In this document: piece by piece, positions 6,070-22,366 of the stretch
Layout: every line of letters starts with the position of its first letter
Numbering within the stretch: position 1 is the stretch's first letter
Assembly (NCBI RefSeq): GCF_900102215.1
Contig: NZ_FNBG01000003.1
Coordinates: forward strand, 206,397 to 246,396
Origin: Fontibacillus panacisegetis
GTDB lineage: Bacteria > Bacillota > Bacilli > Paenibacillales > Paenibacillaceae
DNA: 40,000 bases
Reading direction: 5' to 3'
Program-made: the position numbers and the translations under genes
Notes under the pieces: model-generated
Told to the model about the DNA's origin: nothing
What the model saw: only the letters and a program-made list of their open reading frames with translations
Database searches by the model: none

Positions 6070-8361
6070 CTATTTAATTTTAGGCATTAAAGCTTTAGTT
6101 TCTCCTAATGCTGTAAGTCCACTATAAGCGGATAATACTTCATCTTTCCAAGACCATCTATTTGAACCAATTTTATTCTGCTTCAAATAGTCTCCACCAC
6201 TAATCAAGCACACTACATGTTGGGCACGAGTAACAGCTACATAAAAAATACGGGCTTCTTCCTCCAAATGATTTTGATTATATTTTCCAATCCATTCCTG
6301 ATAACGAGATGACATTCCCTTTTCTCCTTGAAGGCATACATCCAATCCCCAATTATCTTCATCAATGTCAAAAAACTCGGGCATCTGTTTATCATTTAAC
6401 AAAGGTCTCTCGATATTTGGAATAATAACTATAGGATATTCTAAGCCTTTTGCCGAATGAACCGTTGAAAATCTTACTGCATTTTTCACTTGTTGGTTTT
6501 CTTCGTCCACCTCAGCATCATCCATTGCTAACTCTGTCAAGAATGCATTTTGGAACCGTTCTAAGAACTGCTGCATCGTCAAGGCTTCAGCATTCATCTG
6601 TTCTCTTGACCACATCACGAGTTTCTCAAGATTTGCCACGGCTTGAGCATTCCCTCTTGATTTATAATATTCTCTAATTTTTGTAAATTCATATAAACGA
6701 ATCAACAATTGCGGAACAAGTTCAATCTTAATACGTTTTCTGAATTCCTTTATTCCTTTATACCAATCCAAACATTCAGGGGTTCCCTCAAACCAATCGC
6801 ATAAAGGAGTTACTGAGTCAGTTTGGCGATAAATATGAACCGGAGCTTTAAACGGTAAAAATGGTGTCTCTAATGCAAGGTCTAAAGAAACATCATCACG
6901 ATACTTCATCATTGCTTGCAGCATATAATAGCAATTTATTATCTCATTTCTTTGGAAAAAACCTCCGCTAACATCTGTTACAACTGGAATATCTGACTTA
7001 AGTTCTTTGAATTGCTGCTCATAATTAAGCATCTGATCATTCGAACGAAAAAGAACGCAAATGTCTTTGTATTGTACATTACAAAGACCCTTTCCATGCA
7101 TATCTATCTCTTGACTTTGAAACATTTTTATTCGCTTTATTAATTCCTCCACCAATTCATTTTTATTACGACTGTAAACATGATAATACTGAAATGGAAC
7201 CATACTATCCTGTGGTACATGTGCTTCATTTGGGGTAACTAGTACATCTTTCATCACACTATATCGTTCCCCCATACTGTCAAATAGCGCTGATTGAGCC
7301 TCGTTTAACGGCTTTGTTGGGCGACGCGAAGCATTTAATGACAACATAGTCACACCATTTTCCTCAGCCATCTGTTTGATAATTGAATCATCTGCGCCGC
7401 GGAACCCATAAATAGCCTGTTTACGATCTCCTACAACTAAGACATGTCTTAGTTCTTGAATTAATTGATCAATTATTGTTTTTTGTAAGCGATCTGTGTC
7501 TTGAAATTCATCCACAAAGAGGTATTGGAATCTGCGCCCTAAAAGGGGGGCAATAGTACTTCCATTTTGCTGCATCATAGTTGCAGTCTTGTGAAGTAAA
7601 TCATTGGAATCAACCCCGCCTAAAGACTCTTTAATACTCTTATATCTCTTGTCTAAATTATTCAAAAAGGCAGCAACCGCCACACGATATTCTTTCCCAT
7701 CATCATTTGGTTGATTTACTGTTTCATTGTAGAGATCTTCAATTTTCCTACCATTTCCACGTACCCGTTCATACCATTCTTCTAATTTTGAACGCATTTC
7801 ATGTATAGCCCAAGGTATTTTATTAGATTGAAACAAGATTGACATCTCTGCATTTTCTAAAGCATAGTTCATTGTATCATCTAAAGCTCCAAGAAAGTGT
7901 CTGCGGGCAATCAAAACCTCTGTTTCGTGCGGTACGTATTCCTGGTAACCAAATGTTTTAAGCATCATGGAACAGAAACCATGAATAGTTCCAATAAAAG
8001 TAGATGACAATCTTTCTTTCTGTGCGAACCAAAATTTACGCTCTTGTTCGTTATCCTCTAGTTCAGACTTCCTTAACAGATTTTCAACACCTTCTTCAAG
8101 GCGTTGGCGCATCTCATCAGTGGCTTTATTAGTAAACGTGATGAGGGCGAAATCATCTATAGAAGTTTCACTTCGAAAAGTATCTACCAGATGTAATACA
8201 GTAGCTACCATCACCCGCGTTTTACCGGAACCCGCTCCGGCAGAAACAACTGTTATCTTATCAGAACCAATTACTCGATCAACTATAAGTAGTTGCTCTT
8301 CTGAAAGTTCGATTCCTCCACGTTTATTGTTTTCAACTGTAATAGAAATTCCTCCACTCAT
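6070..8361 (-). CDS. UvrD/PcrA/AddA-like SF1 helicase (763 aa, no C-terminal nuclease domain)
   Basis: Start ATG 8361 (MSGGISITV...) follows GGAGGAGGGG. SF1 motifs seen: SAGAGSGKT (I), FTNKATDEMRQRL (Ia), LFVDEFQDTD (II), VVGDRKQAIYGFRGAD (III), LNASRRPTKPL (IV), TVHSAKGLEYPIVII and YVAVTRAQ (VI). Its start lies 1 nt from the stop of the upstream gene. Confidence 0.9.
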   Translation of the reverse strand: MSGGISITVENNKRGGIELSEEQLLIVDRVIGSDKITVVSAGAGSGKTRVMVATVLHLVDTFRSETSIDDFALITFTNKATDEMRQRLEEGVENLLRKSELEDNEQERKFWFAQKERLSSTFIGTIHGFCSMMLKTFGYQEYVPHETEVLIARRHFLGALDDTMNYALENAEMSILFQSNKIPWAIHEMRSKLEEWYERVRGNGRKIEDLYNETVNQPNDDGKEYRVAVAAFLNNLDKRYKSIKESLGGVDSNDLLHKTATMMQQNGSTIAPLLGRRFQYLFVDEFQDTDRLQKTIIDQLIQELRHVLVVGDRKQAIYGFRGADDSIIKQMAEENGVTMLSLNASRRPTKPLNEAQSALFDSMGERYSVMKDVLVTPNEAHVPQDSMVPFQYYHVYSRNKNELVEELIKRIKMFQSQEIDMHGKGLCNVQYKDICVLFRSNDQMLNYEQQFKELKSDIPVVTDVSGGFFQRNEIINCYYMLQAMMKYRDDVSLDLALETPFLPFKAPVHIYRQTDSVTPLCDWFEGTPECLDWYKGIKEFRKRIKIELVPQLLIRLYEFTKIREYYKSRGNAQAVANLEKLVMWSREQMNAEALTMQQFLERFQNAFLTELAMDDAEVDEENQQVKNAVRFSTVHSAKGLEYPIVIIPNIERPLLNDKQMPEFFDIDEDNWGLDVCLQGEKGMSSRYQEWIGKYNQNHLEEEARIFYVAVTRAQHVVCLISGGDYLKQNKIGSNRWSWKDEVLSAYSGLTALGETKALMPKIK

Positions 8362-8362
8362 C

Positions 8363-11233
8363 TTATTCCCCTCCTCCAATTCCCAAACATTCCATACGAA
8401 CTGGACAAGTAGTACAATGTTTACCAGCATGTTTTGGAAACTTATTTTCCTCTATAGAAACTATCCAGTTTGCTAATTGTTCTTCCGATGAATCTTTGTG
8501 CGAAAGTGTTTTTCTCGTGTAATCAGTGTCTTTATATTGAAATTTTTCGATTACATGGGATTGAATAGTTAACCTCCACCAAGAAACAGCATCAAATAAT
8601 GTTTCAAATACTTCTACACCATCAATATCTTTCATCATAATTGATTGGGCACGGGTTTCATCTTGTTTTTTTGTAGCACTTAGAAGCCATTCATGACTAA
8701 GTTCATAATCTAATAACGGAATAGTTAGGATTCCAGAATTCAAATAGTTAGGCACATTGAAAGAAATAATTTTGTTATCATCACTAGGAAGTGTGACATC
8801 AAATTCTTCATTCTCCCCATCAATTATTCTTACTGGATACAGTCCACGCTTACTTGCATGAAATTGAAGTTGGTCTTCAACTTGACGTTCAACGGCTACC
8901 CATGTCTTAGAATCAAAAGTTGGGAACAACTCTGTTACTTGATCCTTAACACACTTTTTGGCTTCCAAAAGAAAGCGAAACAATCCATCTATCTTCTCAT
9001 CTTCTGATCTTAGGACCCTCGGATTTGGCCATTCACCTGTATATTGAGCTAAATTTGTATAAATTTTATCTAACCAAATTCCTTTTGCAACAATATTAAG
9101 TTGCCATTCAGTGCGGTAAACCATAGCCTCTGGATGCAGTAGTTCTAAACGATATCGTAGGGGACATAACCCATAATGGGCAAGCTCATTTAACTCATAC
9201 CTTTTTCTCCGTGCAGGAGGCGGAGGTGGAAAGACTGGTGGGACTTTGGCGAGTGAGATATCTAATTGATCAAAAATACTGCTAACTTCAGTAGGCTTAT
9301 TCATTAGCCTTTCAATTTCGCCAAGATAAACACTTTTTTGAAATGCACGTTCCCCATCCTTGCTAGAGTATGATAACCAAAGCTTTTCACTTGCAGAACG
9401 AATTACGGTTAAGAACATATAACGTTCTTTCATCATATGATTCTCTCGATTGTCCTCATAAAAAGGCCATGATTCAGAGTACAATACTGGAGAGTGCTGA
9501 CTGTCAACAGCTACATACAAAACTGCTGGCTTGTTAATTCCATCCAATGTTTCTGGAGTTACAATGCTTAAACGGTGATCTTCTTTACCATGATCGTCGT
9601 TATCGTTGTTGTTATCCTCGTCTTCCTCCTCCTGCTCAGTAGTACCCCGAGTCAGAGCGTGAATTGCCTCTCCAAATTCACTCGATGTGATATCTATAGA
9701 ATAATAACTCCCAAGTTCTTCGAAAACCTGTTGAATTTGTTCTAGAACTTCTTGTTCTTCACGACGCAGCCGTTTTGGTAATAATTTTTTCATTTCGGCT
9801 TGCAATAATTCAATATGAGATGCAATTGTTTTTTGCCCTCTAACAAACAACCGAACACATGCACTTTCTAGAAGTGAAACAACTTCCTTCCACCTTGCTA
9901 ATGTATGATGATCAAGTTCAAGTAAATGTAAAGGTAATCTTTTATATTGTGTTTTATGTTTCAGAATAAGTCGTTCCAAAACCGAATTCCACTGTTCCTG
10001 AGTTTCACAATCACTAAAATACTGATGTTTTACAGAGCGAAACAACGATGCTGAATCTTGCAACCGCGGCCCAAGCCAACCTGAAGCCAGAATTGTCTCC
10101 AGTTCGTCCATTGTCAACTTTAAATTTCCATTTTCCCATATACGGTACAAAGTCAATACAAAACGACCAACTGGTGTGAGTAACAACAAACGAGGTTGAA
10201 TAGACAATGTAACCGGAATTGGTTCCGAAGAACTGTCCGAATAAAATAATAGTGGGTTCATCGCTAAGTGATCTCTAAAACGATCAATAAATTCTTTAGA
10301 TCTTCTCATAACAATCACTACATCATCAGGTTTGTACGTTTTGTCTGCGAACCAAACTTGCAGTTGGTCGATACAAGCCAACATTTCCCTATCACGATTT
10401 GGATATTTTTTTATGATAATATTTGAAGTATCCCCTGCGTAGTTCACTGTATTATCAGAAAATAGATTTGATTGCAAAAAGTTTAAGTCTTCTTTTTTAC
10501 TATTGGGATCGGTCTCCAGAACTTTATTTGTAATATTCGGAACAGAACTGTAGGTGTTGCTTATTATTTCAAATCCTTTAGGTTGATTAGGATTTAAGGG
10601 AACGACAAAATATAGTTGGATTTTTTTATTCAAACAAGTTTGAACAAAAAGCTTCTGCAGTTCAGTAAAAAATGTAAATCCTTCCATTATCACAACTGAT
10701 TCTGGAGCAAATCCATTAAGCAGAAACTTCCTAGCAGCAGTTTCAAATAGCTCTCGATTTTTTGCTTTCATTTCATTATGAAATGAATTATGTATTGCAA
10801 TCAAATACCTACCCAATTCTGGATTCACAAGACAATCTAATTTTTCCTGCGGAAGAGAAGTGTATCGCAAGTCAATACCCTGAGTTGCTAAATCATAAAA
10901 AACACGCAAAAAAGAATTCGTGTCCTTATGAAATAAATCATGTAGCAATATATCGTCAGCAGCTACTTCTTTTAAAGCTCTTTTTAGAAAGGTCTTTTCC
11001 TCTCCACGTGTAGCAAACTTAACACCTTTTTCTTTCAGAACTCCTTTAAGAAAATCATTAAACAAGGCACACTTTTTATCCTCCCATATTTGAGTCCTAG
11101 GAATTAGCTCCTTACGTTCACGAGCCAATGCTTTTGTTGCAGTGACATATAAATAGGATTTACCCATAATCATCTCTTGTTTAATTAATGCATCAGATGG
11201 TCGAGAATTCTCATACGTACATAAGTAAGGCAT
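8363..11233 (-). CDS. AddB/RecB-family (PD-(D/E)xK plus 4Fe-4S) nuclease-fold protein with inactivated helicase-like N-region
   Basis: ATG 11233 is preceded by AGGAGGG. The Cys arrangement C(PLRYRLE)...C-TT-C-PVRME-C at the C-terminus equals the AddB/Cas4 Fe-S ligand pattern C-Xn-C-X2-C-X5-C. The N-terminal Walker A is degenerate (QEMIMGKS). A GF.FFTELQ-type AddB motif is present. An acidic low-complexity insert EQEEEDEDNNNDNDDHGKEDH lies at about 9580-9645. Confidence 0.75.
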   Translation of the reverse strand: MPYLCTYENSRPSDALIKQEMIMGKSYLYVTATKALARERKELIPRTQIWEDKKCALFNDFLKGVLKEKGVKFATRGEEKTFLKRALKEVAADDILLHDLFHKDTNSFLRVFYDLATQGIDLRYTSLPQEKLDCLVNPELGRYLIAIHNSFHNEMKAKNRELFETAARKFLLNGFAPESVVIMEGFTFFTELQKLFVQTCLNKKIQLYFVVPLNPNQPKGFEIISNTYSSVPNITNKVLETDPNSKKEDLNFLQSNLFSDNTVNYAGDTSNIIIKKYPNRDREMLACIDQLQVWFADKTYKPDDVVIVMRRSKEFIDRFRDHLAMNPLLFYSDSSSEPIPVTLSIQPRLLLLTPVGRFVLTLYRIWENGNLKLTMDELETILASGWLGPRLQDSASLFRSVKHQYFSDCETQEQWNSVLERLILKHKTQYKRLPLHLLELDHHTLARWKEVVSLLESACVRLFVRGQKTIASHIELLQAEMKKLLPKRLRREEQEVLEQIQQVFEELGSYYSIDITSSEFGEAIHALTRGTTEQEEEDEDNNNDNDDHGKEDHRLSIVTPETLDGINKPAVLYVAVDSQHSPVLYSESWPFYEDNRENHMMKERYMFLTVIRSASEKLWLSYSSKDGERAFQKSVYLGEIERLMNKPTEVSSIFDQLDISLAKVPPVFPPPPPARRKRYELNELAHYGLCPLRYRLELLHPEAMVYRTEWQLNIVAKGIWLDKIYTNLAQYTGEWPNPRVLRSEDEKIDGLFRFLLEAKKCVKDQVTELFPTFDSKTWVAVERQVEDQLQFHASKRGLYPVRIIDGENEEFDVTLPSDDNKIISFNVPNYLNSGILTIPLLDYELSHEWLLSATKKQDETRAQSIMMKDIDGVEVFETLFDAVSWWRLTIQSHVIEKFQYKDTDYTRKTLSHKDSSEEQLANWIVSIEENKFPKHAGKHCTTCPVRMECLGIGGGE

Positions 11234-11383: not shown

Positions 11384-11394
11384 TTATCTTCACT

Positions 11395-12141: not shown

Positions 12142-12617
12142 TCCCGTCTTGCTTCGGCATAGCTGGTTGGTGTTTCGAATAACCGGACAAATTCAGTTCT
12201 TGCATCCACGTCTTTTGATGAGTATTTATCAGTACTTAGCGCTGTTTCCATCTGCTCATAAAGCCAAACGACCATGTTTTCAGCAGTCGTATTCATTAAC
12301 GGCAACGTCTCATTTAGATATCTGTGGTCTAAGTATGGCTCTATTTGCTCACGCCAAATTGTTTTTATCATTCCAAAATCTATCGTCATGCCAATTTCAT
12401 TTGTATATCCACTTACTCCAAAAACAACTTTATAGGTGTGACCATGTAGATTTTTACATTTACCCTCATATGCATGCAAGTGATGCGCCGCGTCAAAAGT
12501 AAATTCTTTACTGACTAATACTCTGCGCTGATGATATTTCAACTGTTCTTGAGTAATATCCTCTTTAAACTTTTGCAATGCATCTACAATGACGAATTGC
12601 CCTGGCATTTTGTTCAT
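12126..12617 (-). CDS. queD: 6-carboxy-5,6,7,8-tetrahydropterin synthase
   Basis: [26 protein letters not shown] shows the QueD/PTPS Cys-X3-His-Gly-His signature. Confidence 0.92.
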
Positions 12618-13297
12618 AACATCTGCTCCGGATTTCTTCCTTGCAAAAATCTATCCAAACCAGCTTTTCTCAACTGGCAAGCAGGACAAGTACCACATCC
12701 ATCACCGATAATACCGTTGTAGCAAGTTAAAGTCTTTTGGCGTACAAATTCAAACGCCCCTAATTGATCTGCCATTTCCCACGTCTCTGCTTTATCAATC
12801 CACATTAACGGAGTATGAATGATAAAATTATGATCCATCGCTAAATTTAACGTCACATTTAGGGACTTGATGAAATCATCCCGGCAGTCAGGATATCCAC
12901 TAAAATCTGTCTCGCAGACGCCTGTTACAATATGTCTAGCATCTACTCCTTTAGCAAATACTGCGGCGAAACTTAAAAACAAATGATTACGTCCTTCCAC
13001 AAATGTGCTGGGAAGTTCACCATCATTATGAACAATTTGGAGGTCATTACGTGTCAGAGCATTCTGAGTTAGTTGACCGAGCAAGCTCATATCAAGTAAC
13101 GTCCACTTTACTCCAAGTTCATCGGCGATTTTTTTAGCACATTCAATTTCTAAAGCGTGCCTTTGTCCATAATTAAAGGTGATTGCTTCAACTTCGTCAA
13201 AGTGCTTCATTGCCCAAAACAAACAAGTTGTACTATCTTGACCGCCACTAAAAACTACAACGGCTTTTCTGTTTTTTTGTTCCATAATCTTACCCAC
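12614..13297 (-). CDS. queC: 7-cyano-7-deazaguanine (preQ0) synthase
   Basis: [15 protein letters not shown] is the PP-loop. The C-terminal Zn cysteines are CYNG...[11 protein letters not shown]. There is a 4-nt ATGA overlap with queD. ATG 13285 is an alternative start. Confidence 0.93.
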
Positions 13298-13351
13298 TTT
13301 CTCACCATTCTCCCTTAATGATAACAGATGTACTATTTTATCGAAAGTTGA

Positions 13352-16300
13352 CTATTTATCGTTGCCCACAACTAATCTAATCTCTACAACTTCAAACAAA
13401 TTAGGAAACTTCTCTTTAATCTCTTCTAACAGACGTTTACCTTGGACTGGTGGGAGGGTACTATAACCATTCTCAATGAGTAATCTAATATGTCTTTTTA
13501 TAGAAGGCCTGATTTGAGAATTGTGATTTATTCTTTCGAGTAGTTGATAAATATTCCCAACGTCTTCATAATCAAGATCATTCCGAATTACTTCAAGAAG
13601 GTTTATTTTGATCTGCTCAAGTTGAAGTTTTCTTTCAACCAGTTCTCTTAATTCATAAAAGTCTATTGATTGCCACTCATCAATTACGGAATTGAGTTCA
13701 GATTCAATCTGTGAACCCTCCATTAAGAGCTCAACACATGCAATCATTTTTAATTTAAGTTCCTTAATTGGCTTTAGAATTTCTAATTGGACTTGAAGAT
13801 TTAACAAATACTTAACTAAAGTGCGCGGAGTTAAAGCAAGACAGTTTTTTAGATTTGATACCTGCTGCACATTAGTTAGAATTTTTCTTTTCTTCTTCTC
13901 TAATTCAGACAAAGAGAACTTACCATCATCAACAATTTCTACTCCCACTTCTTCATAAGTCGCTTGCATACCACACTCAATAAGAAAATCAACTACTTCC
14001 ATTAAAGCCTGGTCAAATTGCTTTGATAATTGATCAACTTCATTGTTTAAAGCAAATAACCTATTAAATTGAATGACTAACTCTGGTTGTTCTAATTGTT
14101 GTTCCAGCAGCGTATAATTCACAAGGTCTTGTTGTCGAAGAAATATCTTTTCGTTAAAAGTACAAATTTGGTCTGCAAGTTTAATCCATTCTGATTTACA
14201 AGAACCCATTAGAAATGGAATCATCGTTAGTCTTTTTTCAATTGATTGCCTAAAGCTTTGATGAAGCAGTTCAAGATAACCACTATAGCTTTCTTTTAAG
14301 TTTGATAAGAATTCCTTCAAGGTTAGACTACCTATTGTAAAGCTTTCTAACGTTTTAGAAGGTACAAGACTTAATAACCATAGATCAAATTCTTCATTCG
14401 CTAATACATCATCATCTGGAGTCTCATAAAAATTTTCACGTAACAAATACCAATCTGAATAACATTCATCAAGCAATGACATTAATTCTTTGTTGAAGGG
14501 AGATTTTCCTTTCGCATCGGAAGTCCATGAGGATTCGCTATATATTCTGGCTTGTTGCGCCCAATTCCTCATTCCGTGCACAAATACAGGTAGCTTCAAC
14601 CCAAGAGCTAGCTCGAGAGATTCAAACCATATTTTACGAACATTTTCTGCCTGATATATCCATTTGGAGGTTTCATATTCATTCGAGATTTTTTGAAATG
14701 TATTTAATTTTTCTGAATACTTCATCGTTTGAAAGTTGGTAATTTGAATGCCAACGTAGCTACGATTTACATTTATAGAGAACTCGTCATTTTTGTCTAG
14801 TTTAATAGGATATCGTGTTCGATTAACAACTTCATTCCATTGAATAACTGAGGAGGTTCGAGATGTGAATGAGCGGTTCATATGTACCCCCTTTATAACA
14901 TCATGTACCAGAGCAGCAACTCCAGATCTAACAGGTAATAATAGTTCATCGTTTACTTCTTTTCCTTCTACCCAATCTCTGACTACCTCTTTTTCATTGA
15001 AGACAGCATTATTTTCATTTTTATACTCTATTTGAAGCGGTAGTTCTTCCCTTGTATTACCTGCTGCTATCTTGTTTAACTTAATAGATATTTGATTTTC
15101 GCTATAACCAAAGTGCTTTAACAGGGGTTCAGAAATTATCATTTGAATTGCATCCTCAGACGCATACCATTCAGATAGTGTTTTAATAAACATATCTTCA
15201 TGCTCCGCAAACATTTCCCTGCGTATAAGTGGAATAACTCTACTAACATGCTTTTTACCTTTTAGAAAGAAGCGTAAGATTTCCTTGCTATTCAGTATCA
15301 TGTAACGTAATTTACCTTTTCCTATAGGAATAGCATCGTATGTGCGTCTTAGCATGTGACTATTAAATGGGAGCAACTGAACTCCAAGATAATTTAAATT
15401 ACTATCCTTGTCGCTTTCCTCTGGCAGGATACCAGAACATTGTTTGTAGTGCGGACATTTAAGAGAGCAGTTGAATCCCTGCGTCGCTTTCAGTTGGGTA
15501 AGATAATTTGCTATATATGGTACTACTTGCTTACGATCAAGATTGAAAAAGTCTTTCCCAGACTCATCCGATAGCCATAGCTTTTTTACACGATCATTAA
15601 TAGTATCAAGATTCTGTATTCTTTGTGTGAGACTAAACCCCTTCTCTGTATCCTGAACTGCACCAGGTGTCAAACCAATGACCACATCCCAGCTCCCTTC
15701 TTCTAATGTAATAAGTTGATCAAGGATACTGGTTGCGTAAATATTAACTGATTGAACTAAATCATCAATCAACAACAAAGGACGGATTCCTCTGCTTTTT
15801 ATCTGCAAAGACATTTGTTTAAAAAGGGTTCCGATATCTTGTCCCTCGAAAAGAAAATGGTCCAACTGCCGCGAGAGATTTTGTCGAAATGCTGCGTATT
15901 CTAATGGAATATGAAGGGTTGTATTGGCGAGTAAAGTTTCAAACTGTTCCCGATGCATCACCTCTAGTGGATTTTTAATTTTTCCTCGTTTAACTTGTGA
16001 TGTAAAATCAATAATATTTTGCTCAATCACCGGCCTTAACAATAGTGCTGTTGGAACGATCTCCTCATCGGACTCCATAGCTTCCGCTAATGTTGTCCAA
16101 ACCATTTGGTTAACAAGGGTTATGGGCTTTTTAAGCAAAATCCCCCACCTGTCTTCATCAATACAAACATCTAGGGATAAATTCAGTGTTTCTAAACATT
16201 TTTTGATCAGGGTCTGAGGATTTAGTTCTGTTCGTGAGATTCGTATCACGGGTCTATCTGATACTTCCGCTACCCACTTATCTTTTAACCAACGAAGCAG

Positions 16301-16552
16301 TTCGGATTTCCCCGATCCTGTCGAACCGAATACTAAATAAACTCTGTTGCCACTAGTATCAGTTTCTTTGAGTTCTCCCAACAATTCATCTTCCGTAACC
16401 TCAGCGATTAACTGACTACCGTTATACCTATGCATTACTTGCGGAAAATGCGTTCTTCTGAAATACTCAGGTGATTGGTCATATCGCTCATCTGCAGTAC
16501 CAGCTAAAAGTTTAAGCGAATTTTTGTTGAGACAAGGAAGCATTAGTATCAC
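13352..16552 (-). CDS. Large P-loop NTPase (1066 aa), family unassigned
   Basis: Walker A is VYLVFGSTGSGKSELL near aa 75-90. A Walker-B-like segment RPLLLIDDLVQS lies near aa 265-276. There is a Cys cluster CSLKCPHYKQC, followed by about 650 aa of helical sequence without motifs I recognise. The start is ambiguous (GTG 16552 or ATG 16543). It overlaps the upstream gene by 32-41 nt. Confidence 0.8.
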   Translation of the reverse strand: MILMLPCLNKNSLKLLAGTADERYDQSPEYFRRTHFPQVMHRYNGSQLIAEVTEDELLGELKETDTSGNRVYLVFGSTGSGKSELLRWLKDKWVAEVSDRPVIRISRTELNPQTLIKKCLETLNLSLDVCIDEDRWGILLKKPITLVNQMVWTTLAEAMESDEEIVPTALLLRPVIEQNIIDFTSQVKRGKIKNPLEVMHREQFETLLANTTLHIPLEYAAFRQNLSRQLDHFLFEGQDIGTLFKQMSLQIKSRGIRPLLLIDDLVQSVNIYATSILDQLITLEEGSWDVVIGLTPGAVQDTEKGFSLTQRIQNLDTINDRVKKLWLSDESGKDFFNLDRKQVVPYIANYLTQLKATQGFNCSLKCPHYKQCSGILPEESDKDSNLNYLGVQLLPFNSHMLRRTYDAIPIGKGKLRYMILNSKEILRFFLKGKKHVSRVIPLIRREMFAEHEDMFIKTLSEWYASEDAIQMIISEPLLKHFGYSENQISIKLNKIAAGNTREELPLQIEYKNENNAVFNEKEVVRDWVEGKEVNDELLLPVRSGVAALVHDVIKGVHMNRSFTSRTSSVIQWNEVVNRTRYPIKLDKNDEFSINVNRSYVGIQITNFQTMKYSEKLNTFQKISNEYETSKWIYQAENVRKIWFESLELALGLKLPVFVHGMRNWAQQARIYSESSWTSDAKGKSPFNKELMSLLDECYSDWYLLRENFYETPDDDVLANEEFDLWLLSLVPSKTLESFTIGSLTLKEFLSNLKESYSGYLELLHQSFRQSIEKRLTMIPFLMGSCKSEWIKLADQICTFNEKIFLRQQDLVNYTLLEQQLEQPELVIQFNRLFALNNEVDQLSKQFDQALMEVVDFLIECGMQATYEEVGVEIVDDGKFSLSELEKKKRKILTNVQQVSNLKNCLALTPRTLVKYLLNLQVQLEILKPIKELKLKMIACVELLMEGSQIESELNSVIDEWQSIDFYELRELVERKLQLEQIKINLLEVIRNDLDYEDVGNIYQLLERINHNSQIRPSIKRHIRLLIENGYSTLPPVQGKRLLEEIKEKFPNLFEVVEIRLVVGNDK

Positions 16553-17288
16553 ATCTCCCCTCTACCTTAATCCAGTTCAATGTATTTTTTGGCCCATAGG
16601 ATTTATATGGAAAATCTTGCACATAACTCAATTCTATTTCCCCTGCCTCAGCTAATCCCATCAATGAAAAAATAATCCCTTTATAAATATTCCCTTCTGA
16701 TGTTAAGCATGGAATAACCGGGTGAATAAATCTTTCACAGAATAGATGTAATCCACCCTCCCATGTCTCGTTTCTTTCAATAATACTTCTCATTAATGAA
16801 AGTTGTGGAAGTGCATAAAAACCTGAGTAGACACGTCTCCCCAATCCCCAACATTCCATCATACGCTTCCATGCATTTACTTTTTCATGACCAACTACTG
16901 TCTTCATTAATTGGCTATTAACTTGGTAATGAATATTACTCACAAATAGTCTATCTGGCTTTACAAAGAACTCTTCAAAAATTGTCGTAAATAAATTATC
17001 AAGTGAATCGCTCGGCATATTATCAGAAGTTGAAATCCCCCTTAATCTCAGAAAAACTTCTTTGTTAGACCATGCTTTATTTTGTGACACATAAAATCGT
17101 GCTTTGTCTTTATATATGAATTGTAAATCTTCTAATACCGTCAAGGCACATTCGATTAAAGAGGTAATGTCACCCTCTTCCCGATACTGGAACTTTGTTT
17201 TTAACCCATTTGCATCCATTCCAGGCTTAGCTCTTAGTTCCTCATAAATTACTTCAATTTCTGGCCCGTAACACATTTGGAACAACAT
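16512..17288 (-). CDS. Hypothetical protein (258 aa), possible N-terminal winged-helix
   Basis: ATG 17288 is preceded by GGAGGGG at 5 nt. It overlaps the 3' end of the 310-aa gene by 35 nt and the 5' end of the NTPase gene. There is no catalytic motif, and the wHTH guess is weak. Confidence 0.65.
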   Translation of the reverse strand: MLFQMCYGPEIEVIYEELRAKPGMDANGLKTKFQYREEGDITSLIECALTVLEDLQFIYKDKARFYVSQNKAWSNKEVFLRLRGISTSDNMPSDSLDNLFTTIFEEFFVKPDRLFVSNIHYQVNSQLMKTVVGHEKVNAWKRMMECWGLGRRVYSGFYALPQLSLMRSIIERNETWEGGLHLFCERFIHPVIPCLTSEGNIYKGIIFSLMGLAEAGEIELSYVQDFPYKSYGPKNTLNWIKVEGRCDTNASLSQQKFA

Positions 17289-18186
17289 GTTCGCCCCTCC
17301 TCTGCTTATTTTCTAAAATATCTTTAAATGTTCTTAATAAGTGATAATAATTGTGGACTGATCTTAACTTCATATATTCTCTCGGGGAGGGAATAAAAAT
17401 CTGTTTTGCATTAATTTCACATACAGGGCATTCACAATGAAGTGGATTTTCCAATCGAGGGCTTGTGGGTTTTGCTCTGGATTCTGATAAAAAAAATGTT
17501 CTAAATGGTCTACTGTAAAATACCTGAAAGAATGCAGCGGCCATTGTTGGTCGAGTTGAATCAAATGACTTTACTCCAATATCAACCATCGCATGAAGTT
17601 GAGGAATCCCTGTTACTCCAAAGACATGAAGGTTGGCAGATCCAACAACATCTACAGCTCTCCTAATCATTTCAATCTGTTCAGTCTGATGCTTAAATAA
17701 CAAGGACCCGATCCCGAAATTTTCATACCCCATCTTAATTAACTCATATGCTGAAAACTCTATACTAGCTTGGTCATAACCTTGGATTACTCCCATTGGT
17801 TGAACAAATTTAGGAAGCTCATACTTATTAAAGAGATTTAAATATTCGTACGCATTAAATAGCGTTCTTTCTATGGCCATGTATCGTTCAGATAAAGAGG
17901 TCTTATTTAATAGGGGTTCATCAAAATGAACCATTTGAATTTTTGCCGTTGAATCGCAATCTTCCAAGATTGATAGTTGAATATCAAAAACATCTTTTAG
18001 TGGTGGCCTACTTTTTTGTTTAACATAAAAAACTGATCCACAATCTAGTATTAACTTTTTAGGTTTGTTTCTATACTTCTTTACTCCTCCTCTATTGTCT
18101 GGAATTGCACTTATTAGCACCGGACACGTAGGGAAGTAGTCACAAAAAATTGCATCACTATGTGACCAACCAATATAAAAATCCAC
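17254..18186 (-). CDS. TGT-family transglycosylase, DpdA-like (310 aa, stand-alone)
   Basis: GTG 18186 is preceded by AAGGAGG at 8 nt. TGT hallmarks: LILDCGSVFY (catalytic-Asp region), GVIQGYD, GIGSLL, HVFGVTG, SFDSTRPT, and the zinc site CECPVC...22 aa...HNYYH (CxCxxC...H). Confidence 0.8.
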   Translation of the reverse strand: MDFYIGWSHSDAIFCDYFPTCPVLISAIPDNRGGVKKYRNKPKKLILDCGSVFYVKQKSRPPLKDVFDIQLSILEDCDSTAKIQMVHFDEPLLNKTSLSERYMAIERTLFNAYEYLNLFNKYELPKFVQPMGVIQGYDQASIEFSAYELIKMGYENFGIGSLLFKHQTEQIEMIRRAVDVVGSANLHVFGVTGIPQLHAMVDIGVKSFDSTRPTMAAAFFQVFYSRPFRTFFLSESRAKPTSPRLENPLHCECPVCEINAKQIFIPSPREYMKLRSVHNYYHLLRTFKDILENKQRRGEHVVPNVLRARN

Positions 18187-18270: not shown

Positions 18271-18295
18271 TAAAAAAAGAAGCCTTCAGGCTTCT
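18271..18295 (-). terminator. Rho-independent terminator overlapping the stop codon of the 262-aa gene
   Basis: Minus strand: AGAAGCC-TGAA-GGCTTCT followed by TTTTTTTATATTTTTT. The TGA stop sits in the loop. Confidence 0.75.
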
Positions 18296-19074
18296 TTTAT
18301 CCATTGTCTCCATATTTCATATATTAATCCGCGCTGTTCATCATTAAATTTGAAGCGACCATTATTTACATTTAAGACAGGATTATCTCTGTCAAAGAAG
18401 TTTCCAGTCCAATTTTCATAATGAAATTTCTTTAATAACAATGGACGCGGCAAAATTTGTGAACCAGTAATCCATTGTTCAATGAAATATCTAATATAGC
18501 AATACCACGCTATAGAGGAATCAGCAATAGATTTTTTTCGGAACTGTTTCCTTTGTACCACAGAAAGGTATCCTAATTCAGAGTAATCATTCATTAAAGA
18601 ATCAACGTACTTGATTAAATCTTTGGTTAATTGAGGATATAAACTACGCTCAATTCGATAGTTTAGAAAATCTTCAAAAATATCATGCAACGATCTGATG
18701 GTCATTAGTTTAGTGGAGTTACTACTTATCTTTTCTCCCCTCTCTATTAACCGTTCAAAACGTTGATAAGACAATAATTGATGAACACAGTAACTTGGAA
18801 ACTGTTGTACTTCAGATACAATTAGAACAACATACTCATCATTCTTACTACCATTGGGCAATTTGTATGTAAATTGTGGGTTTTTCACTTGTAATTTGTT
18901 ATCAATTAAACTCACGACAGTATCATAATTGACTAAAATGACGTCTTCGCCAACTACATCAGACTGAACTACTGGAAATCCCCAATCTTTGATCTGACCT
19001 AGGGGCAAGACAGTAAAATAAACTTTATTGTTCTTTCTCGTTAAATTGCTTATGTTCTCAAAAGTAAAAAACAT
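18286..19074 (-). CDS. Hypothetical protein (262 aa)
   Basis: ATG 19074 is preceded by GGGGGAA. The N-terminal ~100 aa look beta-rich and the C-terminal half looks helical. No motif recognised. Confidence 0.65.
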   Translation of the reverse strand: MFFTFENISNLTRKNNKVYFTVLPLGQIKDWGFPVVQSDVVGEDVILVNYDTVVSLIDNKLQVKNPQFTYKLPNGSKNDEYVVLIVSEVQQFPSYCVHQLLSYQRFERLIERGEKISSNSTKLMTIRSLHDIFEDFLNYRIERSLYPQLTKDLIKYVDSLMNDYSELGYLSVVQRKQFRKKSIADSSIAWYCYIRYFIEQWITGSQILPRPLLLKKFHYENWTGNFFDRDNPVLNVNNGRFKFNDEQRGLIYEIWRQWIKEA

Positions 19075-19088
19075 GGAATTTCCCCCAA

Positions 19089-19129
19089 CGCAAATATGCC
19101 TTAGTGTACCACACTAAGGCATATTTGCG
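19089..19129 (-). repeat. Perfect 19-bp-stem inverted repeat between the 683-aa and 262-aa genes
   Basis: CGCAAATATGCCTTAGTGT-ACC-ACACTAAGGCATATTTGCG fills almost the whole 57-nt intercistronic gap. No T-tract follows it on the coding strand. Confidence 0.9.
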
Positions 19130-19131
19130 CA

Positions 19132-21183
19132 CTATTTATTCCACCGCTTCTTTAATTCCTGAATTTGACTATAATATACATGTGTATTATGGAAGCCTCT
19201 TCGTCTGTTCCTATTGTTACCCCTGAATACTATGACATCAATTCCAATTTCCCTACATATATTACAACCACATTGTTCCCATGGTCTTTCAGATAAAACC
19301 TCTCTATACATGTCCTCATGAACTTCACGCTTTTCACCAAGTATTTTGTCATACTCCAGTATAGCTTCAAGTGTCGAATCTAACTCTCTTGTCCCTGCGC
19401 TGAACTCTCTAAGAGCGCCCAAAGCCTCTTGTTCAAGTCTTCTATATTCCGCAAACTCTATTTCATCACTATTTTGCAACATTTTTTTCACTCGACCAGA
19501 TGTTTCTTTGGCTTCTGGAATTCTAATCGCTGTATAATGTTTTCCATTTAAAGAGTGGTAATTATGCCCTGTTCCTAACCATGCTCTTCTCAATGGTGAA
19601 GAAGAGTCAAATGATGTCACGCCCAACTTATGGAATGACTCCATTGTTCTCACATCTCGTGCAACACCAAATAAGTGCATTCGAAACGTAGGGCTTGGAA
19701 TAATAGGCGCTATTTCTTTTAAAATTTCATATATTTTTTCAGATTGTTCTCTGGCTAAACCACCTAGGGCAACATAATCGTAACCTAACCCAATAAGATG
19801 CGCAACCGCTCTTCGGAAAGAAGGCGGGTCCCACCCTTGAACTATACCTATCGGATGGAACTGATAGTTCATTATTTCTTTTCTTTCTCTATACATGTGT
19901 AAAAATTCTTCCGCCATCGTAAGGGTTAATTCATAACGCTGATTTCGAATGTTTTCATCTTTTTGAAAGGGTCCGACTATCAGATGATCAATAGATACAC
20001 CATAATCTAAACCTAAAGTATGATAGTAATCCATAATTTCTTCGGTCGTATACGGTGGTACATCTTTATCAATATAACTAAAAGCACCGCAATCACCCAT
20101 AATAGGATACTCTCTAGGTAGTTTATAAAAATCGTGCAAACCCATTTCTTCAATCATCTGATTTTTTTGTTTGGTGGCACTATCAATGTTTACTTTAGAG
20201 ACAAGTAACCCATCAAACTGTGGTCTATCGAATATCTGGTGAGCATACACATCATTTTCTAATGGATTTCTATTTTTTTCTGAGAAATCAGTCATAAAAT
20301 CATAATTAGGATCTACCCTATCATCATTCTCTGGAAGGTAAAATCTTGGTTCCTCAATGCAATTTATAGCGACCAACTCATCCGGTACAGGGAACATTTC
20401 ACTAAAGAACTTTAATAAATTTCCACTATCCGATGTTTCATTAAATAACTCAAGTTGTTTAGTTGAAGCAATCGAATCTAAAATAAATGATCTAATTTGA
20501 TCAGGATGATGTATTATTGTGCTCCATTTCTGATCAATATCAGTTGTAATAATATTTCTTAATAAATGTGCAAAAAGATAACCTTTAATTCCGATCAATC
20601 CATATTTAAAGGTTTTAGCTTCTTTTTCACCAATAGTTAATACATGATAATCATCCCAATTTAAAATTCTAGCACGACTAGATGCTCCAGCAAAAAAGAT
20701 AACCTTTTGATTTTTATCCAGATTCAGTGGCCACTCCACAGCTTGTAAATATTTATCTCCGAGCAAGAAAAAAATAAGATCATATTCTGCAATTTTTGTT
20801 TGTAGTACCTGCGTAATTTTGAGTTCTCGCGCCCATCTTTTTATAGACCGTGAGTCCATCGTGTTAAAAGTTACTTCATAAGGCACAATTTGCTCATCTT
20901 CATTCAAAAGGCCATAACCCGCTGAAATAATGCAAAGATCAATGTCCCCTCCTTGCTGACGATATTCTTTAATACCATTCATTAGCGCAAGATGTTGACT
21001 ACCGGTGTACATTTCATCAGCACGTTCTTTAAATTCCAATAATTCTTCTTCTCTTCTTCTCAAGACTTCTTTATTTTTAAAATCGTCAAATACAAGTTGA
21101 TTTATAGGTTTGTGTAACTTCTCTCCAGTACAAGAAGTCACAACAAGAATACGGTTTGACAAAAACATCCCATCCTTTAACAC
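19132..21183 (-). CDS. Fusion protein: N-terminal YaaA/DUF6884-like domain plus C-terminal TGT/DpdA-like transglycosylase (683 aa)
   Basis: C-terminal half: MGDCGAFSY, GIVQGWD, ALGGLA, HLFGVA, SFDSSSPLRR, and the zinc site CGCNIC...22 aa...HNTH. N-terminal ~230 aa: VVTSCTGEK, EMYTGSQH, IISAGYGLLNEDEQIVPYEVTF. The last resembles the YaaA motif SGLYGVLRP...PYRLEM and the SA.YGL motif of DUF6884. ATG 21168 is an alternative start. Confidence 0.8.
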   Translation of the reverse strand: MLKDGMFLSNRILVVTSCTGEKLHKPINQLVFDDFKNKEVLRRREEELLEFKERADEMYTGSQHLALMNGIKEYRQQGGDIDLCIISAGYGLLNEDEQIVPYEVTFNTMDSRSIKRWARELKITQVLQTKIAEYDLIFFLLGDKYLQAVEWPLNLDKNQKVIFFAGASSRARILNWDDYHVLTIGEKEAKTFKYGLIGIKGYLFAHLLRNIITTDIDQKWSTIIHHPDQIRSFILDSIASTKQLELFNETSDSGNLLKFFSEMFPVPDELVAINCIEEPRFYLPENDDRVDPNYDFMTDFSEKNRNPLENDVYAHQIFDRPQFDGLLVSKVNIDSATKQKNQMIEEMGLHDFYKLPREYPIMGDCGAFSYIDKDVPPYTTEEIMDYYHTLGLDYGVSIDHLIVGPFQKDENIRNQRYELTLTMAEEFLHMYRERKEIMNYQFHPIGIVQGWDPPSFRRAVAHLIGLGYDYVALGGLAREQSEKIYEILKEIAPIIPSPTFRMHLFGVARDVRTMESFHKLGVTSFDSSSPLRRAWLGTGHNYHSLNGKHYTAIRIPEAKETSGRVKKMLQNSDEIEFAEYRRLEQEALGALREFSAGTRELDSTLEAILEYDKILGEKREVHEDMYREVLSERPWEQCGCNICREIGIDVIVFRGNNRNRRRGFHNTHVYYSQIQELKKRWNK

Positions 21184-21190
21184 AATATAA

Positions 21191-21212
21191 AATAGGGCGA
21201 GAACGCCCTATT
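21191..21212 (-). terminator. Hairpin (terminator or attenuator) between the transporter and the 683-aa gene
   Basis: Minus strand: AATAGGGCG-TTCT-CGCCCTATT followed by TTATATTG. It begins 2 nt after the transporter stop and ends about 8-20 nt before the next start. Confidence 0.55.
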
Positions 21213-21213
21213 T

Positions 21214-21759
21214 TCAAACAACTTTTGCTTGTTTAAAGAAAATTCGTTTAACAATAATTGCAGCAACTAATTGAACTAATGTCTTAACAATAATTTGGCC
21301 AACGATAGCTAAAAACACAGCATTCCACGGAAGAATATTAGCCCCCAACGGTGATAAACCAATAACAACGAAAATAATACTATCTAAGATTCCACCAACA
21401 ATTCCACTATACGCTACCCTTAGATGAAAAGGTAATTTAAGACGGGAATAGATTTCTGTATCTGTGGTCTCAGATACTGCAAATGTAATAATTGATGCAA
21501 AAACAATCCAAAGTGTATCTCCCAGTAAAAGCGATGTTAATGCTGATAAAATCATTGCTAATAAAATAAGCAAATAGGTCCTGCGTCGACCAATGAAATT
21601 TTGAACAAAATCACGGAAAATAAATGTTGCCCCAATTATAAAAGTCCCTGCCGGAACAATGAAGGGACCGATAAAAAATGGGGGTACTCCTGCTGTTACA
21701 ACATTTGATGAAACGATAGCCAGTAAATAAGCTACGATGGTTAAATATTTAATTTTACA
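21214..21759 (-). CDS. YhhQ/VUT-family queuosine-precursor (preQ0/preQ1) transporter; no canonical start codon
   Basis: The frame is open from 21759: (C)KIKYLTIVAYLLAIVSSNVVTAG...FIFRDFVQNF...VSETTDTEIYSRL...GGILDSIIFVVIG, which are DUF165/YhhQ-type motifs on a multi-TM protein. The track only reports the C-terminal 119 aa because no ATG/GTG/TTG occurs between 21759 and 21573. Confidence 0.7.
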   Translation of the reverse strand, partial: CKIKYLTIVAYLLAIVSSNVVTAGVPPFFIGPFIVPAGTFIIGATFIFRDFVQNFIGRRRTYLLILLAMILSALTSLLLGDTLWIVFASIITFAVSETTDTEIYSRLKLPFHLRVAYSGIVGGILDSIIFVVIGLSPLGANILPWNAVFLAIVGQIIVKTLVQLVAAIIVKRIFFKQAKVV

Positions 21760-21937: not shown

Positions 21938-22366
21938 TTGAAGATGGAGGTTATTTTTTTGAATAATTATGGAAAATCTGCTATTCGAGCAGTAGAACTC
22001 ATTCAATCCGGTGAAGTTCCTTATACGGAAGATGCCTGGAAAAAAGCGACCACAGAATTTTTCACAATTAAAACCAAGGCATGTCCCAGAAGTGCTTTTT
22101 TGGGGCTTTGCGAAGCAGGCTTAATAAAAGATGTTCATCAGATACATATCAAACAGCCTCTCAAAAATACAATTAACAAAGATCATGCGATTGAAGCTGT
22201 TCAACTGCTCACAGAAAATGAAGATTACGCTTCATACAAATCGCTTCAGTTGTGGAGGATTATTATGCTAGGAAATCAAAAGTCACATAATTTCCAAATG
22301 GACGTAGTACTGGCACTATGGAACAATGGCATGATTTCTCCCGCTAAAACTTATATTATGGCTTAA
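21938..22366 (+). CDS. Hypothetical protein (142 aa or shorter)
   Basis: Sequence ...NNYGKSAIRAVELIQSGEVPYTEDAWKKATTEFF...CPRSAFLGLCEAGLIKD. It is divergent from the island and its start is uncertain. Confidence 0.5.
   Translation: MKMEVIFLNNYGKSAIRAVELIQSGEVPYTEDAWKKATTEFFTIKTKACPRSAFLGLCEAGLIKDVHQIHIKQPLKNTINKDHAIEAVQLLTENEDYASYKSLQLWRIIMLGNQKSHNFQMDVVLALWNNGMISPAKTYIMA

Follow-up and report, generated by a model that had tools for sequence, protein, structure and literature searches.

A predicted DpdC-like/DpdA fusion protein in a 7-deazaguanine DNA modification island of Fontibacillus panacisegetis

In Dpd-type (7-deazaguanine) restriction-modification (RM) islands, DpdA and DpdC have been characterised as separate proteins responsible for discrete steps. 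DpdA puts preQ0 in the place of guanine in DNA. It is a divergent relative of TGT, with Asp95 as the acid/base, Asp256 as the nucleophile, and Asp130, Gly206-Gly207 and a structural Zn site as further elements of the enzyme (PMC10164549). The canonical enzyme requires the ATPase DpdB. DpdC of Salmonella converts preQ0-DNA to ADG-DNA in vitro independently of DpdA and DpdB, and its substrate is DNA rather than the free base. The dpdC and dpdA genes of the canonical cluster share a strand, with dpdC immediately upstream and some 50-70 nt between the two; the loss of a single stop codon would thus yield a fused architecture.

DpdC is itself a DUF328/DUF6884-type protein. The Pfam authors give CxxxK and LSAxxG as the conserved motifs of DUF6884, which are family-wide rather than specific to DpdC, and describe YaaA/DUF6884 proteins as DNA binders, with YfjM modelled flipping a base and cited for its binding to abasic or RNA-base lesions (PMC11701544). 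E. coli YaaA, whose alpha/beta 'cantaloupe' fold is also taken as a mark of DUF6884, binds DNA, acts in peroxide stress and is not known to be connected with 7-deazaguanines. We found no published description of a fusion between DUF6884 and DpdA in the accessible literature, and databases name the fused proteins simply 'DpdA'.

The fused reading frame and its transglycosylase domain

The window, which is the whole 40,000-nucleotide stretch of F. panacisegetis DNA that was analysed, contains the fusion as an intact ORF in a single frame on the minus strand, exactly where the preliminary description had placed it (Table 1). A Fontibacillus panacisegetis protein (P0001) matches the product at 100% identity. 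The NCBI version begins at ATG 21168, five codons downstream of the GTG, and is 678 aa long; this ATG is preceded by AAAGGA and is probably the true start. The motifs first reported for the N-terminal domain were all recovered, VVTSCTGEK at aa 14-22, MYTG at aa 58-61 and IISAGYGLLNEDEQIVPYEVTF at aa 85-106, and are invariant or nearly so in an alignment of 37 full-length homologs with 45-100% identity (A1).

The C-terminal part matches DpdA over its full length. The NCBIfam model NF041059 covers aa 280-676 (model positions 2-405 of 406) with 445.5 bits against a cutoff of 200, the PADLOC DpdA model scores 416 bits on the C-terminal half, and phmmer aligned the C-terminal 404 aa end to end with Salmonella Montevideo DpdA (PDB 7UI4, E 9.4e-90), bearing out the earlier claim that the N-terminal domain is joined to a complete transglycosylase domain. 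Pfam TGT (PF01702) gave no match to the fusion protein at E <= 1, yet almost all of the homologs have a recorded match to it. The DpdA residues map to D364 (acid/base), D399 (base-recognising), D526 (nucleophile) and G474-G475, and the Zn site to C638/C640/C643/H665 (CxCxxC...H), all of them invariant in the alignment.

Compared with the Salmonella Montevideo Dpd system, the fusion system has preQ0 synthesis and Dpd-type restriction genes in common, but the protein differs from Salmonella DpdA by an N-terminal extension of ~270 aa (the DUF6884 domain plus the linker), by the company it keeps, as DpdB is missing from the window and from every Firmicute relative, and by a substitution in the base pocket, where H181 of DpdA is replaced by Q449, a glutamine that is invariant across the whole fused family. 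Given this substitution, the inserted base could be one other than preQ0. Together with the varied 7-deazaguanine derivatives used by phages, it speaks for an alternative in which the N-terminal domain performs other 7-deazaguanine chemistry, acting on the free base (for example, converting preQ0 to the ADG base before insertion) or producing a non-ADG derivative, with the DpdA domain inserting the product. We regard this alternative as quite unlikely: DpdC, the nearest characterised relative of the N-terminal domain, works on DNA and not on the free base, YaaA/DUF6884 proteins bind DNA (PMC11701544), and the tether to a DNA enzyme fits an action on DNA, as does the domain arrangement predicted by AlphaFold2 (AF2). 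In the full-length AF2 model, the linker pLDDT dips to 63-80 and the pTM is 0.84, a value which suggests that the two domains are fixed relative to each other.

Table 1. Features of the fusion protein and of the surrounding genes, in window coordinates
Feature	Position	Strand	Evidence or remark
VUT/YhhQ-family protein (preQ0/queuosine-precursor transporter type), directly upstream of the fusion	21214..21740	-	Pfam Vut_1, E 1.3e-12
DpdC-like/DpdA fusion protein, whole ORF	19132..21183	-	683 aa from GTG
N-terminal DUF6884 / DpdC-core-like domain, aa ~11-235	20479..21153	-	Pfam, PADLOC, hhalign, AF2, Foldseek
CxxxK motif, S17-C18-T19-G20-E21-K22, invariant, equivalent to DpdC C10/K14	21118..21135	-	Alignment, hhalign
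SAGxG motif, S87-A88-G89-Y90-G91, invariant, equivalent to DpdC S84-A85-G86-x-G88	20911..20925	-	Alignment, hhalign
Inter-domain linker, aa ~236-271, variable and indel-rich	20371..20478	-	A1 columns ~260-320
C-terminal DpdA domain (DNA-guanine transglycosylase), aa ~272-683	19132..20370	-	NCBIfam, phmmer to 7UI4, A1
p262, conserved 262-aa protein	18286..19074	-	Not detectably DpdB- or DpdC-like
Short second paralog of TGT/DpdA type (310 aa) with conserved Asp and Zn motifs	17254..18186	-	Pfam TGT, E 6.8e-15
p258, 258-aa protein conserved with the fusion in Firmicutes	16512-17288	-	
1066-aa P-loop protein with weak DpdH-like N-terminus, conserved with the fusion in Firmicutes	13352-16552	-	
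queC	12614-13297	-	NCBIfam equivalog; preQ0 synthesis
queD	12126-12617	-	NCBIfam equivalog; preQ0 synthesis
queE	11395-12141	-	NCBIfam equivalog; preQ0 synthesis
AddB-like 956-aa protein and UvrD/AddA-like 786-aa helicase, candidate restriction module	6070..11233	-	

The N-terminal domain and its relation to DpdC

The N-terminal domain had been likened at the outset to both YaaA and DUF6884, and only the second likeness stood at the level of family profiles. Pfam DUF6884 (PF21818) matched aa 51-164 with an E value of 1.5e-12 and 48.3 bits, above the gathering cutoff of 30, and both family motifs are present as C18-TGE-K22 and I86-S87-A88-G89-Y90-G91, whose C, K, S, A, G and G do not vary among the 37 homologs. 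The YaaA profile (PF03883) reached 23 bits (E 6.4e-5), below its cutoff of 29.6; by profile score, the domain falls outside PF03883 and its relationship to YaaA/DUF328 is distant. The AF2 model of the domain has a pLDDT of 93, and its best solved-structure match in Foldseek is E. coli YaaA (5CAJ) with E 5.3e-5 and prob 1.00, but with a TM of 0.38-0.39 and 13% identity. The domain is also alike to the DUF6884 protein YfjM of B. subtilis in the family motifs CxxxK and (L/I)SAxxG. Members of the YfjM type, however, are standalone proteins with a proposed role in DNA repair, whereas in the fusion clade the domain is joined to DpdA or encoded next to it, in linkage with que genes.

Comparison with DpdC gave a match along nearly the whole domain. 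When 28 N-terminal domains were aligned with 19 canonical DpdCs, hhalign returned 98.1% with an E value of 1.1e-13 over 198 columns (N-domain 9-215 to DpdC 1-236), against 0.6% for the negative control with DpdB. CxxxK, YxG, SAGxG, PY..T, a W and a Y are invariant in both groups, and DpdC C10/K14, Y61/G63, S84-A85-G86-x-G88 and Y99/T102 each have an invariant counterpart in the N-terminal domain. From this profile alignment, the domain is homologous to the entire ~235-aa catalytic core of DpdC. The genomic company is likewise of the DpdC type: the domain is fused to DpdA, queC/D/E lie in the window, and the pathway neighbourhood is common to the fusion and to DpdC (e.g., in Enterobacter pPOL9A, L001:7959-8915). 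The preliminary description had suggested a writer-modifier fusion on the condition that the N-terminal domain be related to the enzyme that further modifies preQ0-DNA; the DUF6884-type nature of DpdC, the hhalign match and the identity of the invariant residues lend support to this idea at the level of sequence.

In contrast, the domain is not a full-length DpdC as judged from its sequence, because the conserved C-terminal tail is absent and the identity is about 20% over the hhalign region (33% over 66 aa in BLASTP). An HMM of this tail (~80 aa, ...FRDSGNSFEEKRFR...) had no match in the window, nor in any of 84 related loci. PADLOC DpdC models hit the domain with an E value of 1.9e-11 but matched only at positions 3-117 of 319 and 3-161 of 299. 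The generic DUF6884 profile scores the N-terminal domain at 48 bits and DpdC itself at 24 bits, and some conserved positions differ between the two, Q63/H64/E95 in the former corresponding to H65/W66/H92 in the latter. These differences in the region of the active site are a further point for a chemistry other than that of DpdC. The domain falls in a clade apart from DpdC, larger and made up of short DUF6884 proteins (~230 aa). The neighbouring proteins p258 and p262 were considered as carriers of the missing tail and were ruled out by the tail HMM and hhalign.

Distribution of the fusion and its genomic company

A genome scan whose seed (A2) biased it towards the fusion's own motifs yielded 80 species-level loci. 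The fusion is a single ORF in 64 of them, in Firmicutes, cyanobacteria and others. It had also been proposed that the ORF might prove to be two genes. This would make it an artefact, in which a DUF6884 gene and dpdA were merged by a sequencing error or by a recent and functionally meaningless loss of a stop codon. Four cyanobacterial assemblies do carry the halves in different frames, with the breaks falling in the inter-domain linker, and in two of the four (L060 and L067) the first half ends in a clean stop and the second begins with an ATG. Against them stand the 64 single ORFs from several phyla, at least 120 full-length homologs with both domains conserved, and a fusion of reversed order in archaea, and we reject the artefact for this lineage as highly improbable.

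The archaeal proteins are ~965-aa TGT proteins encoded on plasmids of Haloferax (L093:4805-7699) and Halorientalis (L094:4796-7699) in Dpd-like/BRIGADE-type islands. Both domains are united in these proteins as well, every motif of the N-domain is retained, and a second TGT and a BrxC/DpdH-like ATPase come next, as in the window. They differ in their archaeal hosts, in large insertions in the DpdA part, and in the order of the domains, the DpdA-like one coming first and the DUF6884-like one last. The reversed order suggests an independent fusion and, with it, a functional coupling of the two domains. No fusion was found in phages.

With respect to DpdB, an HMM search for DpdB/DndB found none in the window or in 23 Firmicute loci, and DpdB/DndB is absent from 38 of the 47 fused loci with adequate flanks. 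A faint DGQHR match (E 0.039) had made p262 a candidate for a cryptic DpdB, which the DpdB HMM and hhalign ruled out. Given that canonical DpdA depends on the DpdB ATPase, and that neither p262 nor p258 is DpdB-like, the N-terminal domain might be a DNA-handling accessory rather than a modifier of preQ0, one that binds or distorts DNA, flips the target base or holds an abasic-like intermediate, and so lets the DpdA domain reach duplex DNA in place of the ATP-driven help of DpdB, leaving dPreQ0 as the final mark. The DNA-binding YaaA as the best solved-structure match and the base flipping modelled for YfjM (PMC11701544) agree with such a role. We nevertheless consider it unlikely. DpdB is present in 13 cyanobacterial loci and occurs beside the fusion in 10, so the domain is not simply a substitute for DpdB and takes the place of DpdC in a set of A, B and C; a blanket statement that fused loci lack DpdB is ruled out by these loci and holds for the window and the Firmicutes. 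Moreover, a separate canonical DpdC or DpdC tail was found in none of the 64 fused loci, the domain has no likeness to DpdB in hhalign, and the retention of an invariant Cys-Lys pair and of the residues shared with DpdC among homologs of 45-100% identity points to catalysis.

The fusion is usually accompanied by genes for preQ0 synthesis and by Dpd-type restriction genes. que genes are present in 32 of the 64 fused loci. The VUT gene adjoins the fusion in the Firmicute loci too, and in the window its open frame runs past the listed 119-aa ORF; the short TGT/DpdA-like paralog is found in 16 of the 23 Firmicute fused loci. Dpd restriction genes accompany the fusion as DpdE/F/G/H-like genes in Leptolyngbya and as DpdJ/K in Paenibacillus sp. 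37. Neither a preQ1 riboswitch nor any other Rfam family was found in the window. Standalone relatives of the N-terminal domain directly follow queC/queD in five loci in which dpdA is not present (L043, L055, L064, L088 and L090), an arrangement that speaks for the writer-modifier reading and also for the alternative of a different 7-deazaguanine chemistry. A point against the writer-modifier reading is that other close standalone relatives have no visible que or dpdA and are neighbours of MmeI-type RM genes, an AGOG-like glycosylase, a GIY-YIG nuclease or a giant helicase.

Proposed function and implications

Taken together, we think it somewhat probable that the fusion is the modification enzyme of a Dpd-type RM island and holds both modification steps in one polypeptide; the widespread natural occurrence of the fusion suggests that insertion and modification work as one unit. 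For this function, preQ0 would come from synthesis by the linked QueC/D/E or from import through the VUT transporter, which is also linked, and the DpdA domain would exchange guanine in DNA for preQ0. Since DpdB is not encoded nearby in the window or in any of the Firmicute relatives, the insertion would be either independent of DpdB or helped by other proteins of the cassette. Next, the tethered DpdC-like domain would work in place on the preQ0 now in the DNA, most likely by hydration of its nitrile to the amide (dADG). By analogy with QueF and nitrilases, the invariant Cys-Lys pair could plausibly serve as nucleophile and base in forming a thioimidate intermediate. For this domain, covalent attachment to the DNA-binding DpdA part may stand in for the ~80-residue tail of the free-standing DpdC.

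A broader reading, which we offer tentatively and consider doubtful, is that such fusions form a distinct and widespread Dpd-like class in which one polypeptide would insert and mature the mark without DpdB, with the DUF6884 domain supplying both DNA access and the conversion of nitrile to amide. The standalone ~230-aa relatives, which number in the hundreds, might then be an overlooked family of enzymes acting on modified DNA bases, and canonical DpdC one divergent branch among them.

A natural fusion that occurs in dozens of species, with the domains in either order and in many cases with no DpdB, makes a case for physical coupling between the insertion of the 7-deazaguanine mark and its maturation. 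Through it, the large and unannotated clade of ~230-aa DUF6884 proteins becomes connected with the modification of DNA bases. There is also an annotation gap, as surveys that require separate dpdB and dpdC genes will miss or misclassify the fusion islands. The fusion offers a compact one-protein system for biochemistry and structural work, and possibly a tool for writing 7-deazaguanines into DNA.

The reading frame and its gene neighborhood

The fusion is encoded by an uninterrupted frame of 683 aa counted from GTG, in which a DUF6884/DpdC-like N-terminal domain (N-domain) and a C-terminal DpdA domain are connected by a variable, indel-rich linker with reduced pLDDT (aa ~236–271). A public Fontibacillus panacisegetis protein, which starts at ATG 21168, is 100% identical over 678 aa. 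AAAGGA precedes this ATG, and the strings quoted in the preliminary description occur at aa 14–22, 58–61, and 85–106.

Positions of features in the window and, where an L-number is given, in comparison loci
Feature	Minus-strand order	Position	Strand	Remarks
VUT/YhhQ-type transporter	1	21214–~21740	-	frame open well upstream of the TTG giving the listed 119 aa
Fusion	2	19132–21183	-	
p262 (conserved protein)	3	18286–19074	-	no family match
Second TGT/DpdA-like paralog	4	17254–18186	-	short, 310 aa; DCG, QG, FDST, CxCxxC..H kept
p258 (conserved protein)	5	16512–17288	-	no family match
P-loop protein	6		-	1066 aa
queC, queD, queE, then AddB-like protein and UvrD/AddA-like helicase	7 onward		-	
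STAND-like NTPase genes		2081–3007		in the island
DUF6979 protein		21938–22366	+	139 bits; divergent, just upstream of the island
Hairpin, fusion–p262 gap		19089–19129		
Hairpin, VUT–fusion gap		21189–21214	-	terminator-like
Codon of Q449		19837–19839		
L093, reverse-order fusion		4805–7699		
L094, reverse-order fusion		4796–7699		
L064 (Phormidium tenue), que genes and standalone relative		7856–14059		
L091, standalone relative and AGOG-like protein		7495–9127		

GC is low, about 0.29–0.40, across roughly 2–24 kb of the window and 0.41–0.49 in the flanks, consistent with a horizontally acquired island around the fusion. The AddB-like/UvrD pair stands where canonical DpdD–K restriction genes would be. 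Given the open frame and a 180-aa ortholog in Paenibacillus sp. 37, the VUT gene is probably complete and begins at an unusual codon. The 30-nt gap from its stop to the fusion start holds a hairpin (AAAATAGGGCG TTCT CGCCCTATTTT), leaving hardly any space for a promoter. Another hairpin lies within the 57 nt between the fusion stop and the RBS (GGGGGA) and ATG of p262, with a perfect 19-bp stem and a 3-nt loop; on the coding strand, no T-run comes after it. This hairpin is kept in Paenibacillus and Brevibacillus loci with a compensatory T:A to C:G change (GCCTTAGTGT..ACACTAAGGC vs GCCCTAGTGT..ACACTAGGGC), and could be an RNA processing/stability element or a palindromic operator.

The second TGT, the P-loop protein (with a weakly DpdH-like N-terminus), and p258 follow the fusion in 16 further Firmicute species, 14 of which also have p262; in Paenibacillus sp. 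37, DpdJ and DpdK come after this cassette. Of the 23 Firmicute fused loci, 16 contain the second TGT, and comparable genes lie downstream of the fusion in Nostoc (L003) and haloarchaea (L093, L094). It could be a heterodimer partner like eukaryotic QTRT1/QTRT2 or a modified-base reader. In Leptolyngbya, queD-queE-queC and the fusion are followed by SNF2 (DpdE-like), DEAD (DpdF-like), DpdG, and a DpdH-like ATPase, and in Desulfosporosinus the fusion is followed by folE2-queC-queD-queE, a HerA-like ATPase, UvrD, a PD-(D/E)XK nuclease, and GmrSD.

The two domains compared with DpdA and DpdC

The NCBIfam DpdA equivalog matches aa 280–676 end to end (445.5 bits vs a cutoff of 200), bearing out the claim of a complete transglycosylase domain; the PADLOC DpdA model scores 416 bits, and the Pfam TGT model does not match the window's fusion protein. 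In a search of solved structures, the C-terminal 404 aa matched Salmonella Montevideo DpdA (7UI4, E 9.4e-90), in which D95 (acid/base), D130, H181, G206/G207, D256 (nucleophile), and a Zn site have been described (Gedara et al., PMC10164549). With the mapping corrected for the 20-residue tag of the deposited chain, the counterparts are D364, D399, G474–G475, D526, and C638/C640/C643/H665, all invariant in 37/37 homologs, so the writer half is intact. At the position of H181 the whole fused family has Gln (Q449) without exception, the residue that bacterial tRNA TGT carries there; the replacement may reflect a different base specificity.

The proposed DUF6884 character of the N-domain is upheld by Pfam, in which PF21818 matches aa 51–164 (48.3 bits, cutoff 30). 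Kinship with YaaA is distant: for the AF2 model of aa 1–268 (pLDDT 93, pTM 0.90), YaaA (5CAJ) is the best solved structure in Foldseek, with E 5.3e-5 and prob 1.00, but the TM is a modest 0.38–0.39 and PF03883 stays below threshold (23 vs 29.6 bits). An exhaustive HMMER search with aa 1–240 yielded 837 cluster representatives (E ≤ 1e-3); the 150 best include 30 with DpdA sequence and ~90 standalone proteins, 200–260 aa long and spanning aa ~11–212. The N-domain is thus a member of a large "short DUF6884" clade that includes the DpdA-fused forms as one part. Canonical DpdC is farther from the N-domain than all of these and is a divergent cousin of the clade. Two metagenomic members (P0191, P0236) have another architecture of about 350 aa, with an N-terminal DUF7662 followed by DUF6884.

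DpdC, filed under DUF328 or DUF6884 in the literature, alone turns preQ0-DNA into ADG-DNA. PADLOC DpdC models match aa 9–154 of the fusion (E 1.9e-11 to 4e-5), the matches covering just the first third to half of the models. In the canonical cluster recovered from Enterobacter plasmid pPOL9A, a 318-aa ORF immediately precedes dpdA in the same orientation. It matches PADLOC DpdC with 470 bits and DUF6884 with 23.6 bits, and the 91 proteins of its family bear no annotation beyond "hypothetical". From this gene order, losing a single stop codon would be enough to give the fusion. Nineteen aligned DpdCs share a conserved C-terminal tail and invariant T8, C10, K14, Y61, G63, S84-A85-G86-x-G88, Y99, T102, W127/W128, and Y165; invariant in 28–37 fused N-domains are S17-C18-T19-G20-x-K22, Y59-T60-G61-x-Q63-H64, S87-A88-G89-x-G91, E95, P101-Y102..T105, W117, L140-L141-G142..Y145, and K200-G201. 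Profile–profile comparison aligned N-domain 9–215 with DpdC 1–236 (98.1% probability, E 1.1e-13, 198 columns; reproduced in a second run; 0.6% for the negative control, DpdB). The match and the shared key residues indicate that the N-domain corresponds to the entire catalytic core of DpdC. Identity is nevertheless low, about 20% across the profile alignment and 33% over 66 aa by BLASTP, and the ~80-residue tail was not found in the window or in any of 84 related loci. We consider a non-catalytic, DNA-handling role for the N-domain unlikely.

Recurrence of the fusion and of its partners

The best 120 full-length homologs (44–100% identity, about 98% coverage, mostly 660–700 aa) come from Paenibacillus, Brevibacillus, Bacillus, Tumebacillus, Laceyella, Desulfosporosinus, Desulfotomaculum, and one cyanobacterium; all contain PF21818 and all except the top match contain PF01702. 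Most are named "DpdA" by NCBI. A survey of fused or adjacent split genes, as envisaged in the preliminary description, scanned one genome per species with the N-domain alignment and found 80 loci. A single ORF holds both domains in 64, the halves are adjacent but in different frames in 4, and 12 are standalone, proportions that are biased since the scan relied on the fusion's own motifs. In two cyanobacterial assemblies (L060, L067), a complete N-domain gene overlaps by 17–41 nt a DpdA gene that starts at an ATG of its own. The break falls within the linker, and these are either true split forms or assembly frameshifts; that the uninterrupted F. panacisegetis ORF is an artefact is very improbable.

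Haloarchaeal plasmids (Haloferax, Halorientalis, others) encode ~965-aa proteins with the domains in reverse order: residues 2–586 are DpdA-like (E 1e-66) and residues 732–938 match the N-domain (phmmer 1e-22, profile 1e-33) with QCSGSK, YTGRQ, SAGFG, PPYEVTF, LGSDY, and LKG. Downstream, as in the parallel Firmicute cassette, lies a second TGT, here with an uncharacterized 298-aa protein and a BrxC-like ATPase after it. A divergent queC-folE-queE-queD operon adjoins the fusion in Halorientalis (L094). The two domain orders point to independent fusion events and hence to selection for physical coupling. The AF2 model of the full-length F. panacisegetis protein has a pLDDT of 90.4 and a predicted TM (pTM) of 0.84, higher than would be expected of two freely hinged domains.

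No separate canonical DpdC was found in any fused locus. Searching with a DpdB/DndB HMM, we detected DpdB next to the fusion in 10 of the 35 loci from cyanobacteria and in none of 23 Firmicute loci, 6 other-phylum loci, or the window; among fused loci flanked by 4 kb or more on each side, 38/47 are without DpdB. Where DpdB is present, the N-domain is the sole DpdC-like entity and so fills the DpdC slot of the dpdA/dpdB/dpdC set. p262 and p258 were ruled out as a cryptic DpdB or DpdC, showing no likeness by profile comparison.

Proposed role of the N-domain

Standalone N-domain relatives directly follow queC/queD in five loci (L043, L055, L064, L088, L090). L064 has queD-queE-queC ahead of the homolog and no recognizable DpdA within 10 kb; its opposite strand carries a gene of the DndB/DpdB family (201 bits) and another, unannotated, of 322 aa. 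Other close standalone relatives are without visible 7-deazaguanine genes nearby, their neighbors being MmeI-type RM enzymes, an AGOG-like glycosylase, a GIY-YIG nuclease, a 1609-aa DEAD+UvrD helicase, or nothing telling. In L091, within a defence island, a relative is followed, with stop/start overlap, by a 306-aa protein weakly resembling AGOG, the archaeal 8-oxoguanine glycosylase, which may be another pairing of DUF6884 with base excision or base exchange. The CxxxK/SAxxG motifs are common to all DUF6884, including YfjM with its proposed DNA-repair role (PMC11701544). Given these relatives and family-wide motifs, homology alone cannot fix the chemistry; we hold a different chemistry or a free-base substrate for the N-domain to be somewhat less likely than a non-catalytic role.

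We lean modestly toward a writer–modifier model, for which we infer five steps of falling confidence. The DpdA domain would place a 7-deazaguanine in host DNA, preQ0 being the likeliest; the N-domain would work on DNA at or close to the insertion site; it would hydrate the nitrile to give dADG like DpdC, plausibly via the invariant Cys/Lys; the tether would stand in for DpdC's tail; and in DpdB-less lineages, including this one, insertion would be DpdB-independent or aided by cassette proteins, possibly the second TGT, p262, p258, or the P-loop protein.

Publicly, fusion-type proteins are annotated as "DpdA" or "queuine tRNA-ribosyltransferase", and Pfam says of DUF6884 that it occurs "in combination with other domains", nothing further (PMC11701544). 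A DpdC–DpdA fusion is unmentioned in the Dpd biochemistry paper, the phage 7-deazaguanine papers, the 2016 review, GATOR-GC, the BREX survey, the YprA/BRIGADE preprint, and the 2026 7-deazapurine mining preprint, a set outside which the two founding papers fall; the BREX survey describes its TGT systems as without DpdB and DpdC. Sequence comparison shows that the fusion unites an intact DpdA catalytic set with a DpdC-core homolog within an island for preQ0 synthesis and Dpd-type restriction. It is real, widespread, and informative, but it joins two partners whose action in a common pathway was established before.
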